DNA of 64,000 nt, taken from positions 672,001 through 736,000 of the forward strand of contig OZ244799.1 in assembly GCA_965219955.1 (NCBI GenBank), written 5' to 3'. Origin of the DNA: a bacterium. Lineage in GTDB: Bacteria; UBA8248. Of this stretch, positions 5,541 through 9,652 are shown in pieces; the first letter of the stretch is position 1; the number at the start of each line of letters is the position of its first letter. The position numbers and the translations under genes were made by a program. The notes under the pieces are model-generated. The model did not search any database. It was not told the origin of the DNA and saw only the letters and a list, made by a program, of their open reading frames with translations.

Positions 5541-7091
5541 TTATCGCCTCGCCGCCGGGGAGAGGGTGGCTTTCGCGAGCGAGATGAAGTCCGCGTCCGG
5601 GAACACCCGGTAGCCCGATATGCGCCTGTCGAAGACGGCCACGTTCACGCTGTGCCAAAGATTGATGTAGGGAAGCTCGCGGCCCAGGATGCGCTGCACC
5701 TCGCCGTAGATGCGGGCGCGGGCCTCGGGCGCGATGGGTTGGCGAGCTTTCTCCAGAAGCGTGTCGATGCGCGCGTTTTTGTAGAGGCCCCGGTTGAGTC
5801 CGGCCGGAGGGATGAAGCGGCTGTGAAAGATATAGCGGTAGATGTCGGGGTCGGATATGCCGACCCACGTCAGGCTGTAGAGCTGGAAATTCCCGTTTCT
5901 GATGTCGCCGAAAAACGTCCCCCACTCGTAGGAGCGGATTTTCATCTTGATTCCCACGCGGGCGAGCTGATGGCCGAGCACGGTGGCGATGCGGCGTCCC
6001 AGTTCGTTTTGCGAGGTCTTGTAGACGAGCGTGAAACGCGGTTCGGGCCCCGGCCCGTCGGGGTCGGGGTAGCCCGCCGCATCGAGGAGTTTCATCGCCA
6101 GCTCCGGGCGGTGCGCGTAGTCGGGGAGGCCCTTTCGGTGCGCCCAGTGATCCGGCGGCAGCAGGCTGTCCGCCTCCTGGACGAGGCCCTTGTGGATGAA
6201 GCGCACGATGGGCCGCCTGTCGATGGCGTGGGCGATCGCGCGCCGCACCTCGAGTTTGGAGAGAATCGGGTCGCTCATGTTGAAGCCGATGTAGGTGAAG
6301 TTCGTGCCCAGGCGCTTTCGAATCTTGAGCCGCTTGTTCTTGATGAAGCGCGGCAGAATATCGGGCGAAAAAGCGTTCTGGAGAAAATCGACCCCTCCGC
6401 TTTCGAGTTCCAGGACGCGGATGGTCTCCTCCGGCAGAATCCGGAAGATGAGGCGCTCGAAGGCGGGTTTGCCGCCGAAATAGCCGGCGAACGCCTTGAG
6501 GGTGATTCGCTCGTCCGGCGTGAATTCCACGAACTCGAACGGGCCGGTGCCGACGGGTTTTCGGGCGAATCGGCTCCCCGCCTCGCGTGAGCTTTTGGGG
6601 AGAATGCCGATCATGAGGGATTCTGCGAACGAGGCGGAGGGTTCTTTGAGATGAAAGACGACGCTGTGCGGCGTGGGCGTTTCGATGCGCGCGAGTTCAT
6701 TGAGTCCCGCCGCCCTGGGGGAGGCGAGCGAGGGGTCGCGAATGGAGTCGAAAGTGTATTTCACGTCGGACGAGGTGAGGGCTTCGCCGTTGTGGAACCG
6801 CACCCCGCGTTTGAGTTCGAAGCGGTGGACGAGAGGCGTGGGCCGCTCCCATTTCTCGGCGAGTTCCAGGACGATGCGGCCCTCGTGGTCATTCGATATC
6901 AGGCGGCTGAAGATGAAGCGCTGCACCTTGGAGGAGATGGCGTCCTGCGACAGCCTCGGGTCGAGTTGCGTGGGGTTGGTTCCGATGCCGACGACGATGG
7001 CGTCGTTTTTTGGGGAACGCTCCTCCCCGCAGCCGGATAGAAACGCGCACGCGAACGAGAGAACGAGAAGAGCGAGCGATTTATTTCTCAT
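5541..7091 (-). CDS. Peptide ABC transporter substrate-binding lipoprotein (family 5)
   Basis: Lipobox LSG-C; LDP, GVRFHNG, PVGTGPF, VRRAIAHAIDR. Confidence 0.92.
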   Translation of the reverse strand: MRNKSLALLVLSFACAFLSGCGEERSPKNDAIVVGIGTNPTQLDPRLSQDAISSKVQRFIFSRLISNDHEGRIVLELAEKWERPTPLVHRFELKRGVRFHNGEALTSSDVKYTFDSIRDPSLASPRAAGLNELARIETPTPHSVVFHLKEPSASFAESLMIGILPKSSREAGSRFARKPVGTGPFEFVEFTPDERITLKAFAGYFGGKPAFERLIFRILPEETIRVLELESGGVDFLQNAFSPDILPRFIKNKRLKIRKRLGTNFTYIGFNMSDPILSKLEVRRAIAHAIDRRPIVRFIHKGLVQEADSLLPPDHWAHRKGLPDYAHRPELAMKLLDAAGYPDPDGPGPEPRFTLVYKTSQNELGRRIATVLGHQLARVGIKMKIRSYEWGTFFGDIRNGNFQLYSLTWVGISDPDIYRYIFHSRFIPPAGLNRGLYKNARIDTLLEKARQPIAPEARARIYGEVQRILGRELPYINLWHSVNVAVFDRRISGYRVFPDADFISLAKATLSPAARR

Positions 7092-7170
7092 CTGGTCATA
7101 CCGGTGGGCGAGAGACATCTGGAGATTCGCATACGCCGCGTCTCATCGTCAACGCGGCGCGTCCTCGTGG

Positions 7171-7199
7171 TTTACAGCCCGTTCCGGGCGGATTAAGAT
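7171..7199 (+). promoter_or_regulatory. Putative sigma70 promoter of the peroxiredoxin gene
   Basis: TTTACA-17 nt-TAAGAT. Confidence 0.45.
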
Positions 7200-7246
7200 T
7201 CCCCCCGCTGGTGATTATTGACTCGATGATCCGGAGGTTTTCCCCG

Positions 7247-7795
7247 ATGAGATGGAGCAGGTGTCATTTGAAGCGAACTTTGCGCCTGGTGGTGACGGCG
7301 CTCGCTTTCGTATTCATGAGTGTGAGCGTGGCGACGGCCGCGCCATTCGATGAGAATCGCCCCAAGGTGGGGGAGGAGGCGCGTGAGTTCGAAATTCAGG
7401 GCTTCAAGCTGTCCGACCTCAAGGGCAAGAAGAATCTCGTGATGGTTTTCTACCGGGGCCACTTCTGAGTCATTTGCCAGCGGCAACTCGTCGAGTTCCA
7501 GAGATTTTCCGGGAAAATACACGGGCTTCAGACCGAAATCATCGCCGTCAGTGCGGACAATGCGCTTGAAATGAACAGGACGACCCGGGAGTTGGGCATC
7601 CGGTATCTGCTGATCTCGGACCCGAAGAAGCGAATCATTCAACACTTCGGGGTGCTGCATCCCAGAGAAGGGATCGCCCGGCCCGCCACCATCATCATCG
7701 ACAAGAGCGGCGTGGTTCGCTACGTTCACGTGGGCAAATACCCCAGCGACCGCCCCTCGGTTCAGCAGGTGATGCAGGCCCTCGCTTTTTTGTGA
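7247..7795 (+). CDS. AhpC/TSA-family peroxiredoxin-like selenoprotein (in-frame TGA = Sec, UxxC), with signal peptide
   Basis: ORFs 7010-7468 and 7571-7795 are in the same frame, separated only by TGA 7466-7468. Readthrough gives LVMVFYRGHF-U-VICQRQL...IIAVSAD...ARPATIIIDKSGVVRY. Start is ATG 7247 or TTG 7268. Confidence 0.85.
7482..7499 (+). promoter_or_regulatory. Candidate bacterial SECIS hairpin
   Basis: GG(C)AACTC-GTC-GAGTT-CC, apical loop starting GU at +22 after the UGA, with a bulged C. Confidence 0.55.
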
Positions 7796-7846
7796 GTTGA
7801 ATTCCCGGTACTCCCGCCCCCGCCCGGCGCGTAACGGACACCGAAT

Positions 7847-9652
7847 ATGAGATTCATGAAGCAAGACTCAGCGGGACGGTTTTTGAGATTCTCCCTGTGG
7901 GCGATTGTTTTGTGCCTCACCGCCTTGTGCGCGTCGGACGCCTTCGCCGCAAGAAAAAAGCGCGCTCCGAAAAAAAAGGCCGCTTCCAAAAAGGGCATTG
8001 ATTCCAGGGCCGCCTTCCAGGCCATGGTGAAACGCGCCGTAAAAAGGCAGTGCGTCCGTCCCGGACGTCTCGGTCTTTACATTCGCTCGGTTTCCACGGC
8101 GCAGACGCTGTATTCCCATAACGCTGCTGCAAAGCGGATTCCTGCGTCGAACGTCAAACTCTTCACGGCCGCCGCCGCGCTCGCGCGCCTGGGGCCGGAC
8201 TACCGCTTCGCCACCGATTTTTACGCGAAGGCCAAGGTCCGGGGCGGCGTCCTGCGGGGCGACCTGTATCTCAAGGGCTACGGCGATCCGCTTTTCGTGC
8301 ATGAAAGGATGCGCGACTTCGTGCGCCGCCTCAAGCTGCGCGGCGTCAGGCGCATCGAGGGCGACCTGGTGGCGGACGACACCTTTTTCGATAAGAAAAA
8401 ACATGGGCGCGGGTGGCGCGTGGGCCGCTCCATCCGGCCGTACCTGGCGCCGCACGGGGCATTGTCCCTGAATTTTGGTTCGGCGAACGTGCTCGTGGCC
8501 CCGGGTGACGGGGTCGGTACGCCGGCTATGGCGAATCTCGAGCCGCCCTCGCGCGCGCTTCGTCTCCAGGCGAGGGTGAAGACCTCGCGCAGGAGCTTGA
8601 AAATCCGGCTCGGGCGCAGGCGCTCCAAAGGAAAGGATGTCGTTCAGGTTAGCGGCTTGTTTCCGGCAAGGAGCAGGATGAAGCTGTACCGGGTGCCCGT
8701 TACGGACCCCACCGCCTTCACCGCCGGTGCGGTCGCCGCCGAAATGGAGAGGCAGGGAATCGCCTTGAAGGGCGGAATCCGGCAGGCCGCCACGCCGCCG
8801 GATGCGAAGCTTCTCGCGCGAAACCTCTCGCCGCCCCTGAGCGAGGTGGTGAGCGGGCTCAACAAGTTCAGCAACAATTTCGTGGCCGAGCAGGTTCTCA
8901 AGACGATGGGCGCCGAAACGCACGGCGCGCCGGGTACGGCGGAAAAAGGCCTGCGCGTCGTGCGGGATTTTTTGATCTCCACCGGAGTCTCGGCGAAGGA
9001 GATCGCCCTCGCCGATGGTTCGGGCCTGAGCAGGATGAACCGCTCCTCGCCTCGCGCTCTGGCGACTTTGCTCGAAGCGGCGCACAACGATTTCAGGCTG
9101 AGGCCGGAGTTCATGGCGTCGCTGGCCATCTTCGGGGTTGACGGGACGGTGAGGAAAAGACGCCGCCGGGGGGTCGATTCGCGCCGGGTGCGGGTGAAGA
9201 CGGGCGTGTTGAACGGCGTGCGCGCCTTCAGCGGATATGCGGCTGCCGGAAACGGGGAAATTCTCGCATTCTCTATTCTCATGAACGGAAACGCCTGTCG
9301 GCCCAAAAGCCTCACGGGTGAGGTGATTCGCGCAATGGTTTCGTTGAAGCGGGGCTTTTCGAATCCCGTGAACGCTCATCTCAGGGGGGCTCGCGAGATA
9401 ATGGCGCGCTCCATGCCGAAGCCTTCCATCCGGGACGGATGGCGAAGGCGCTCCTCTCCGCGCGCGGGCCCGGCCGGAGAGGGTGATTTAGATTTAGAGG
9501 TCCTGGGTCCGGGGATCGTTCCGTTCGCCGAATCGCCTCTGGACGATTCCCCCGCCGAATTGTCTTTGGAGGATTCCGAAGAAGCAGCCCCGGCGGAAGG
9601 AGGCGCCGCGTGGCCCTCGAAGAGCGGTCCGGGCGGGCGAAGTCGTGAGTGA
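7847..9652 (+). CDS. dacB: D-alanyl-D-alanine carboxypeptidase/endopeptidase (PBP4, peptidase S13) with C-terminal acidic extension
   Basis: PASNVKL (SxxK), SNNFVAE (SxN), DGSGLSR, KTG. Confidence 0.9.
   Translation: MRFMKQDSAGRFLRFSLWAIVLCLTALCASDAFAARKKRAPKKKAASKKGIDSRAAFQAMVKRAVKRQCVRPGRLGLYIRSVSTAQTLYSHNAAAKRIPASNVKLFTAAAALARLGPDYRFATDFYAKAKVRGGVLRGDLYLKGYGDPLFVHERMRDFVRRLKLRGVRRIEGDLVADDTFFDKKKHGRGWRVGRSIRPYLAPHGALSLNFGSANVLVAPGDGVGTPAMANLEPPSRALRLQARVKTSRRSLKIRLGRRRSKGKDVVQVSGLFPARSRMKLYRVPVTDPTAFTAGAVAAEMERQGIALKGGIRQAATPPDAKLLARNLSPPLSEVVSGLNKFSNNFVAEQVLKTMGAETHGAPGTAEKGLRVVRDFLISTGVSAKEIALADGSGLSRMNRSSPRALATLLEAAHNDFRLRPEFMASLAIFGVDGTVRKRRRRGVDSRRVRVKTGVLNGVRAFSGYAAAGNGEILAFSILMNGNACRPKSLTGEVIRAMVSLKRGFSNPVNAHLRGAREIMARSMPKPSIRDGWRRRSSPRAGPAGEGDLDLEVLGPGIVPFAESPLDDSPAELSLEDSEEAAPAEGGAAWPSKSGPGGRSRE

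Follow-up and report, generated by a model that had tools for sequence, protein, structure and literature searches.

A predicted selenocysteine codon in a peroxiredoxin-like UxxC gene of a UBA8248 bacterium

Selenoproteins in which selenocysteine (Sec, U) stands in a UxxC motif on a peroxiredoxin-like (Prx-like) domain have been described as Prx-like thiol:disulfide oxidoreductases or Prx-like 1 in the selenoproteomes of the Sargasso Sea (PMC1088965) and of the Global Ocean Sampling (GOS; PMC2398784). The GOS survey has the entry 'Prx-like 1, pfam00578, UxxC', with 225 selenoproteins and 2,740 homologues containing cysteine (Cys) (PMC2398784), and two reviews carry a 'Prx-like thiol:disulfide oxidoreductase, PF00578, UxxC/UxxU' (PMC9312934, PMC13188914). 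Where these sources deal with the family, they class the UxxC forms with the thiol:disulfide oxidoreductases and keep them separate from selenoperoxiredoxins of the TxxU type (PMC1088965, PMC9312934). Metagenome-assembled genomes (MAGs) labelled Nitrospinota or Nitrospinae are counted among the most selenoprotein-rich bacteria (PMC13326102). The gene considered here lies in a stretch of 64,000 nucleotides, referred to below as the window (contig OZ244799.1 of assembly GCA_965219955.1, positions 672,001 to 736,000), from a bacterium of the lineage UBA8248. From the letters of the window an exported Prx-like protein with a UxxC motif was predicted, with reference to selenoproteins of this kind as an established group, which the four family sources bear out. 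The analysis presented here indicates that the gene very probably encodes a real, Sec-decoded Prx-like redox protein of the UxxC type.

The coding sequence runs from 7247 to 7795 on the forward strand and would yield 182 residues including Sec74, with a TGA stop at 7793-7795. A single internal TGA at 7466-7468, in frame with the ATG at 7247, is the predicted Sec74 codon and takes the first position of UxxC. The second position is Cys77 (codon 7475..7477), which is invariant in all 36 loci of the comparison set out below. Translation through the TGA gives ...LVMVFYRGHF-U-VICQRQLVEF..., and past the TGA 108 codons follow until the stop. The program-made list of open reading frames (ORFs) breaks the gene into two pieces, 7010..7468 and 7571..7795. 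The broken ORF track, the one TGA within FYRGHF-TGA-VIC and the 108 further open codons had all been read correctly in the original prediction, as had the thioredoxin-type domain behind the TGA, which is crossed by the Pfam domains described below.

Conservation of the TGA and of the frame behind it

The read-through protein was used in a six-frame search of 40 related genomes and of the genome itself and was matched in 39 of these 41 genomes. Each of the 33 closer relatives, 22 from the same genus, two from the family, two from the order and seven from the class, had exactly one in-frame TGA in its best match; the same search gave no close match to the read-through protein in the seven genomes related only at the domain level. 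The genome itself has one TGA-bearing Prx-like match and two paralogues free of TGA. A set of 36 loci was then compared, consisting of the window's own locus, 19 genus loci from the six-frame search and 16 fetched loci, two of them from the genus and 14 from the family, order and class, with three of the 14 being second copies (in G026, G029 and G032). The copy of G003, which is split over two contigs, and weaker TGA-bearing matches with an expectation value (E) above 1e-23 were excluded. Five class-level genomes (G026, G029, G030, G032 and G033) hold several further Prx-like matches, each with one in-frame TGA.

Throughout the 36 loci, whose proteins are from 97% down to 35% identical to that of the window, F[YF]RGxF-TGA-xxC is found at the same codon. 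Exactly 108 codons separate the TGA from the next stop in 33 loci, and 109, 118 and 113 in the other three; 28 loci end with TGA, five with TAA and three with TAG. In the 22 genus loci the mismatch at codon positions 1/2/3 was 0.079/0.081/0.303 over the 40 codons before the TGA and 0.145/0.080/0.273 over the 109 codons from the TGA on, so that third positions diverge approximately three times faster than second positions on both sides. The similarity of the two patterns is that expected of a frame translated before and after the TGA. Invariant residues are also distributed over both sides (G42, F48, F68, R70, G71, F73, U74, C77, Q80, L81, V82, D104, D125, P146, G155 and R158). The region 7150-7900 is present at at least 99% in two DNA metagenome assemblies from two studies, with 7466-7468 unchanged; the runs that hold it are labelled sponge metagenome and marine metagenome.

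The TGA had been predicted to stand at the first Cys position of the family motif. This position is occupied by Cys in seven loci of the form FYRG[HYF]F-C-xx-C (codon TGC), which are 23-34% identical and were found by a pattern scan of one genome per species; the pattern matched Cys codons only and is uninformative on further Sec forms. Cys and TGA are thus paired at the aligned position, with Cys in the seven loci and TGA in 36 of 36. The hosts of the Cys forms are MAGs labelled Myxococcales (one), Acidobacteriota (two) and Alphaproteobacteria (four). Two Cys forms on Acidobacteriota MAG contigs, L074 and L075, have a lipobox-like N-terminal LLAGCQ or VLAGCQ and may be lipoproteins, to judge from this motif; no obvious signal sequence was seen in the four alphaproteobacterial forms.

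The start codon at 7247 is preceded at a distance of 9 nt by a Shine-Dalgarno-like GGAGG (7233..7237, forward strand), as read from the sequence. The N-terminal conservation of the genus loci begins at the Met aligned to 7247, with MRW in 19 of the 22. Further upstream, 48 nt before the ATG, a promoter-like site on the same strand (7171..7199) combines TTTACA, a spacer of 17 nt and TAAGAT; it matches the consensus weakly, and the single site of this kind in 6900-8100, against a shuffle mean of 0.3, is no evidence of function. The whole gene is also spanned by an opposite-strand ORF of 223 residues (7193-7864, reverse strand). The ORF list contains several such frames, and in DNA this rich in G+C (60.9%) the present one is in all likelihood a shadow frame.

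The hairpin behind the TGA and the means to decode it

A hairpin resembling a Sec insertion sequence (SECIS) is located at 7482..7499 on the forward strand. When the U of the UGA is counted as column 1, the hairpin occupies columns 17-34 and consists of GG, a bulged C, AACUC, the loop GUC (7490-7492), GAGUU and CC. It had been predicted with a GU-led loop and a bulged C, and it folds as described, with an energy of -5.8 kcal/mol and with the loop G 24 nt past the U of the UGA. It is moreover conserved, with covariation. Since RNAalifold gave only four pairs, the seven-pair model, in which columns 18-24 pair with columns 28-34, was tested by explicit pair counting in the 36 loci (33 distinct rows). 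The paired cells amounted to 87.4%, compared with 13.0-45.9% when the partner was slid by one to three columns, and this value was reached in none of 500 shuffles. Compensatory changes are found at three of the seven pairs. Pair 21-31 is A-U in 19 rows, G-C in 13 and G-U in one, its 5' side being a synonymous CAA/CAG change; pair 18-34 switches between G-C and C-G in two rows, and pair 24-28 between C-G and G-C in four. Pair 19-33 is unpaired in 18 rows, which show the bulged-C form of the genus. The loop nucleotides G25 and U26 never change. Of 149 third codon positions only 13 are constant within the genus, and the stem positions 18, 21, 24 and 30 are four of these; the third position in the loop (27) and column 36 vary. 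Columns 17-26 form the longest stretch without a nucleotide change in the 447-nt region of the genus loci. Such frozen synonymous sites in a stem, next to a free third position in the loop, could be used to train SECIS and selenoprotein finders.

As energy controls the same 20-nt segment was folded in each sequence set. It gave -4.8 to -11.3 kcal/mol in the 36 Sec loci, -0.4 and -3.4 kcal/mol in the two non-Sec paralogues of the genome (FYPFDFSSVC and FYPKDNTPGC) and -0.5 to -3.5 kcal/mol in six of the seven Cys forms. At Rfam gathering thresholds the whole window yielded tRNA-Met only and no SECIS family. Several observations weigh against the hairpin. With seven pairs and a bulge, that of the window is weak, and the single-sequence fold of 7466-7530 does not stand out from shuffled sequences (z = 0.30, with 115 of 200 shuffles at least as stable), so that the hairpin cannot be claimed from the window alone and the evidence for it is comparative. 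The four pairs that RNAalifold placed on the 36 loci are the central ones, with an energy of -1.31 kcal/mol, and the remaining Cys form (L078) folds at -10.1 kcal/mol. G25 and U26 also open a codon that encodes Val in every locus, within a constant QLV peptide, so that selection on the protein may account for some of the nucleotide conservation seen in the hairpin. The compensatory changes, the slid and shuffled controls and the frozen synonymous stem sites argue, taken together, that the hairpin is under selection.

The host genome consists of one contig of 4.28 Mb with 60.9% G+C, and the Sec machinery that had been predicted, SelA, SelB, SelC and SelD, was found in it. Searches revealed selA (578 bits) and selB (390 bits), which adjoin on the same strand outside the window (L001/L003; G000:C1:4191308-4195515, reverse strand), and selD (333 bits). 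A tRNA-Sec scored 75.9 bits against a gathering score of 47, and ARAGORN reported a tRNA-SeC with the anticodon tca. The selD gene, likewise outside the window (L011; G000:C1:2942487-2943449, reverse strand), contains an in-frame TGA of its own in ...KAGG-U-GSKLGP... and is itself a selenoprotein gene. Its UGA is followed at +15..+29 by a hairpin GGGUCC-GGA-GGACCU with the loop GGA, and a long stem of -28.2 kcal/mol extends from about +4 to +56; the likeness to the hairpin of the window is only loose. TGA terminates 1055 of 1980 open frames of at least 400 codons, in which it is the commonest terminator, and is thus otherwise an ordinary stop in this genome. The original prediction had named a genome devoid of Sec machinery and homologues lacking the TGA as grounds for its dismissal; the machinery is present and the TGA is found in all 36 loci.

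A word-indexed protein search, which covered lengths of 100-321 residues only, returned 12 matches. Six of these are C-terminal orthologue fragments of 107-108 residues without the signal peptide and Sec. The other six are remotely related peroxiredoxins (28-34% identity) that carry TxxC, and none of the 12 is a close relative of full length. One cluster of fragments, 86% identical, bears the name 'peroxiredoxin family protein [Nitrospinae bacterium]'. The frequent misannotation that had been foreseen is apparent here, as these public records hold only C-terminal pieces of the 182-residue precursor. The annotation should be corrected accordingly: the true product would be the precursor and not the fragments of 107-108 residues.

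Three other accounts of the TGA have to be set against its decoding as Sec. It might be a nonsense mutation, a pseudogene lesion or an error of sequencing or assembly, in which case no full-length protein would be formed. Gene callers do stop at the TGA, and half of the public matches are fragments. The chance of this is negligible, since all 36 loci, which range from the genus to the class, retain TGA at this codon, the coding substitution pattern continues past it and 7466-7468 reads identically in two independent DNA assemblies. The UGA might also be decoded as a residue other than Sec, either by near-cognate read-through (Trp, Cys or Arg) or as a consequence of genome-wide reassignment, and the inserted residue indeed cannot be read from the sequence alone. 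Such decoding is very improbable in a genome with a complete Sec system in which TGA is the commonest terminator, and in a gene that in 28 of 36 loci is itself ended by TGA, has its internal TGA at a redox Cys position with known Cys forms and carries a conserved hairpin behind it. It is still harder to believe that two products are made, the first an exported peptide of 73 residues and the second a cytoplasmic 'peroxiredoxin family protein' of 108 residues begun at the GTC or ATT after the TGA, although public records are built in this way. The break would fall inside the active-site motif of one compact domain, for which the predicted local distance difference test (pLDDT) exceeds 90 over residues 41-180; the Pfam domains cross the break; and the codon after the TGA in the window, GTC, is an unusual start that no ribosome-binding site precedes. 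It counts against decoding as Sec that the related genomes are kin, so that the locus counts are not independent, and that the family itself has been graded 'predicted with high confidence' and not as shown in a review (PMC13188914). On balance, and by comparative evidence, the window very probably contains a real and intact Sec-decoded gene. The UGA at 7466-7468 would be read as Sec by the SelA, SelB, SelD and tRNA-Sec of the genome, under the direction of the small hairpin at 7482-7499, whose apical loop contains G and U.

Fold, active site and export

Pfam assigns the protein to AhpC-TSA (PF00578) over residues 45-160 with 87.7 bits against a gathering score of 26 (E 7.5e-25) and to Redoxin over residues 51-175 (E 1.2e-19), and both domains cross the TGA. 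An AlphaFold2 model built from the 36-row alignment had a mean pLDDT of 84.1 and a predicted TM-score (pTM) of 0.76; residues 1-30 remained below 50 and most of the remainder exceeded 90. In a Foldseek search 35 of 35 among the matches listed (ranks up to 50) were peroxiredoxins, the closest of these by TM-score being AhpE (4x0x_B; TM-score normalised to the target, TMt, 0.88; root-mean-square deviation, rmsd, 1.6), and Bcp4 (3hjp_A) matched with E 1e-13 and TMt 0.83. The Prx-like character that had been predicted thus holds for the fold. It does not hold for the active site. Canonical peroxiredoxins have the motif PxxxTxxC together with an Arg. When FYRGHF-U-VIC is aligned over FYPLDF-T-FVC of human PRDX3 (5jcg_A, E 1.5e-13), Sec74 takes the place of the peroxiredoxin Thr, Cys77 that of the peroxidatic Cys and Arg70 that of the Pro; Arg70 and Sec74 are invariant in the 36 loci. 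R145 is nearly invariant and lies one column off the active-site Arg of PRDX3 in the pairwise alignment. It is followed by the invariant Pro146, ahead of the strand TIIID, and this R145-Pro146 loop before ...IID resembles the cis-Pro loop of CxxC oxidoreductases such as TlpA, ResA and DsbE. With Sec at the place of Thr and Cys77 at that of the peroxidatic Cys, the active site appears to be a thioredoxin-type UxxC on a peroxiredoxin scaffold. A better label than peroxiredoxin would be a putative thiol:disulfide oxidoreductase on a peroxiredoxin fold.

The predicted Sec-type signal peptide (Sec denoting here the secretion pathway) comprises residues 1-31 (MRWSRCHLKRTLRLVVTALAFVFMSVSVATA; 7247..7339, forward strand), with cleavage likely before APFDENRP. 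The N-terminus of the window's protein has four K/R, then the hydrophobic stretch VVTALAFVFMSV with a mean Kyte-Doolittle value of 2.52 and then A-T-A before A-P. A signal peptide ending in ATA-A had been predicted, and a signal-like N-terminus is seen by the same heuristic in the window and in all of the 36 loci. Each of these has a hydrophobic stretch ahead of the conserved mature part (mean hydropathy 2.16-3.01 over 12 residues), and at least two K/R are found in the 12 preceding residues in 33 (range 1-6). The conserved mature part of the genus loci begins with APFDENRP (APYDENRP in L025). By eye, neither a lipobox nor a twin-arginine motif was present in the N-terminus of the window's protein. 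It counts against export that the signal peptide was judged by hand from hydropathy and K/R counts. The N-terminal features make it likely that the product is exported across the inner membrane. If it is, selenium chemistry would take place outside the cytoplasm of marine and sponge-associated bacteria that possess a full Sec system.

The signal peptide would export the product, and the mature part would adopt the peroxiredoxin fold with U74-x-x-C77. The Sec74 selenolate would attack a disulfide or a peroxide as its oxidised substrate, Cys77 would resolve the intermediate into an intramolecular selenenylsulfide, and an external reductant would recycle the U74-C77 selenenylsulfide.

Neighbourhood, possible functions and relation to known families

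The gene had been predicted to lie just upstream of dacB, and a Peptidase_S13 gene does follow on the same strand at 7847..9652 (E 1.2e-94), 51 nt past the selenoprotein stop; we take it to encode a dacB/PBP4-type D-Ala-D-Ala carboxypeptidase. Its ORF comprises 601 residues and the Pfam match ends at residue 484, with a tail of low-complexity appearance that is rich in Pro, Gly, Glu, Ser and Arg. No terminator-like site was seen between the two genes. Upstream, in divergent orientation (5541..7118, reverse strand), lies the gene of a family-5 solute-binding protein of an ABC transporter (SBP_bac_5, E 2e-82). In the window this gene is followed by ABC permease genes, and recJ follows the Peptidase_S13 gene. 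The neighbourhood was counted in 32 loci with flanks (L023-L042 and L059-L070), 20 with approximately 1.5 kb and 12 with approximately 4 kb. In 31 of them, down to the class level, the binding-protein gene and the Sec gene point away from each other; Peptidase_S13 is downstream in 28, and recJ is next in seven of the 12 wide loci. Some distant relatives carry VanZ-like and DAP_DH_C genes as insertions between the selenoprotein gene and its downstream peptidase neighbour. The conserved neighbourhood is a gene order kept among kin, from which no functional link follows.

In RNA libraries (runs X15 and X16 of one study), contigs with a likeness of 90-95% extend over 7262-7551 and 7278-7892. They pass through the TGA with 7466-7468 unchanged, and one of them continues over the stop into the start of dacB. 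These contigs were rejected as proof of transcription or co-transcription, since they come from a related strain and DNA may be present in such libraries; that no RNA-library contig covers 7150-7253 proves nothing.

As to function, we lean slightly towards a disulfide-reductase type of enzyme as opposed to a peroxidase. An exported peroxidase, in which H2O2 or an organic hydroperoxide would oxidise Sec74 to a selenenic acid in the manner of glutathione peroxidase and Cys77 would resolve it, so that hydroperoxides are detoxified, is a less probable alternative. It is consistent with the fold, with the fact that all of the best sequence and structure matches are peroxiredoxins, with Cys77 at the peroxidatic position and with R145, which is displaced by one residue from the Arg conserved in peroxiredoxins; selenocysteine also serves well as a peroxidatic residue. 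Against a peroxidase it counts that all 36 loci have lost two of the four active-site residues of peroxiredoxins, with Arg70 in place of Pro and Sec74 in place of Thr, and that the invariant Pro146 after R145 has the look of the cis-Pro of CxxC oxidoreductases. The filing of UxxC forms among the thiol:disulfide oxidoreductases points in the same direction, as far as the family sections of the sources go (PMC1088965, PMC9312934). A U-x-x-C pair that serves as a periplasmic site for a soft metal or metalloid, as a carrier of Hg, Cu, As or Se and not as a catalytic redox centre, is quite improbable. The adjacent gene of an ABC solute-binding protein in 31 of 32 loci would fit such a site. The protein, however, matches no metal-binding family in Pfam or NCBIfam and has the scaffold of redox enzymes, and the binding protein next to it belongs to the peptide/nickel family 5 and is linked by position only. 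It is also unlikely, somewhat less so than a metal site, that the selenoprotein, instead of being a free-standing antioxidant, is the redox partner of a conserved cell-envelope module, keeping a periplasmic step of peptide or peptidoglycan recycling reduced from its place between the divergent gene of the family-5 (peptide-type) binding protein and that of the PBP4-type carboxypeptidase, to which VanZ-like and DAP-dehydrogenase-like genes are added in some relatives; were this true, there would be a selenium-dependent function in cell-wall metabolism. Assignment as a UxxC redox protein has to contend with the results from NCBIfam, where 16 families scored below their cut-offs and none passed, including the top match SelL_rel_redox (NF040769; 64 bits against a cut-off of 120). 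It also has to contend with a search for the DsbD_TM family in the genome itself, which gave, as a possible lead to the reductant, only one weak gene (29.3 and 23.7 bits).

Several known groups share part of these features with the putative disulfide oxidoreductase. The canonical peroxiredoxins (AhpE, BCP/PrxQ and 2-Cys Prx; 4x0x, 3hjp and 5jcg) resemble it with TMt 0.83-0.88, rmsd 1.6-2.3 and 25-31% identity and have their peroxidatic Cys at the position of Cys77. They differ from it in that here Arg stands for Pro and Sec for Thr, a signal peptide is predicted and no NCBIfam peroxiredoxin model was passed. PrxU (NF040737) also has Sec on an AhpC/TSA fold. In PrxU, however, the motif is TxxU with Sec at the peroxidatic position, whereas here Sec is three residues earlier, and the protein reaches 39 bits where the model requires 270. 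The SelL-related family (NF040769), the best NCBIfam match, shares the Prx-like scaffold and a redox motif at the same place; the match is in two stretches and covers the first 100 of 173 profile positions, and with its score below the cut-off the protein is not a member. The eukaryotic form of SelL carries UxxU. TlpA, ResA and DsbE (CcmG) are exported proteins of the thioredoxin superfamily with an xCxxC-type motif, as the protein here would be if exported. They differ by their WCxxC in place of FUxxC and by the fold, whose matches here are peroxiredoxins, and their models remain far from their cut-offs (ResA 46.3 against 170, TlpA 22.1 against 230 and DsbE 19.8 against 123.15 bits). SelL itself has been described as a Prx-like protein (PMC2398784). 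Selenoproteins in ABC transport are the subject of a preprint (10.1101/2022.07.06.499078), but it deals with another system, and the part of its text that was available mentions neither peroxiredoxin nor SelL.

The closest system is Prx-like 1, as far as it is described in the sections of the sources on this family. In common with it, the protein has an AhpC-TSA domain with UxxC at the place of TxxC, a hairpin that directly follows the UGA and has G in its small apical loop, homologues with Cys aligned to Sec, a host with full Sec decoding and an occurrence in marine metagenomes, and in both cases the function is a prediction. The published representative of the family is WP_010940744.1, and the placement was made by these described features. 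Two traits set the present loci apart. A signal-like N-terminus is found here in all 36 loci, whereas the term 'signal peptide' was not found in the main text of PMC2398784 nor 'periplasm' in that of PMC1088965, and the position between a family-5 binding protein and Peptidase_S13 was not found mentioned in the family literature, to the extent that its text was available. Judged by its motif, domain and hairpin, the protein belongs either to the Prx-like UxxC family already described or to a closely related sister group, and not to a new kind of system.

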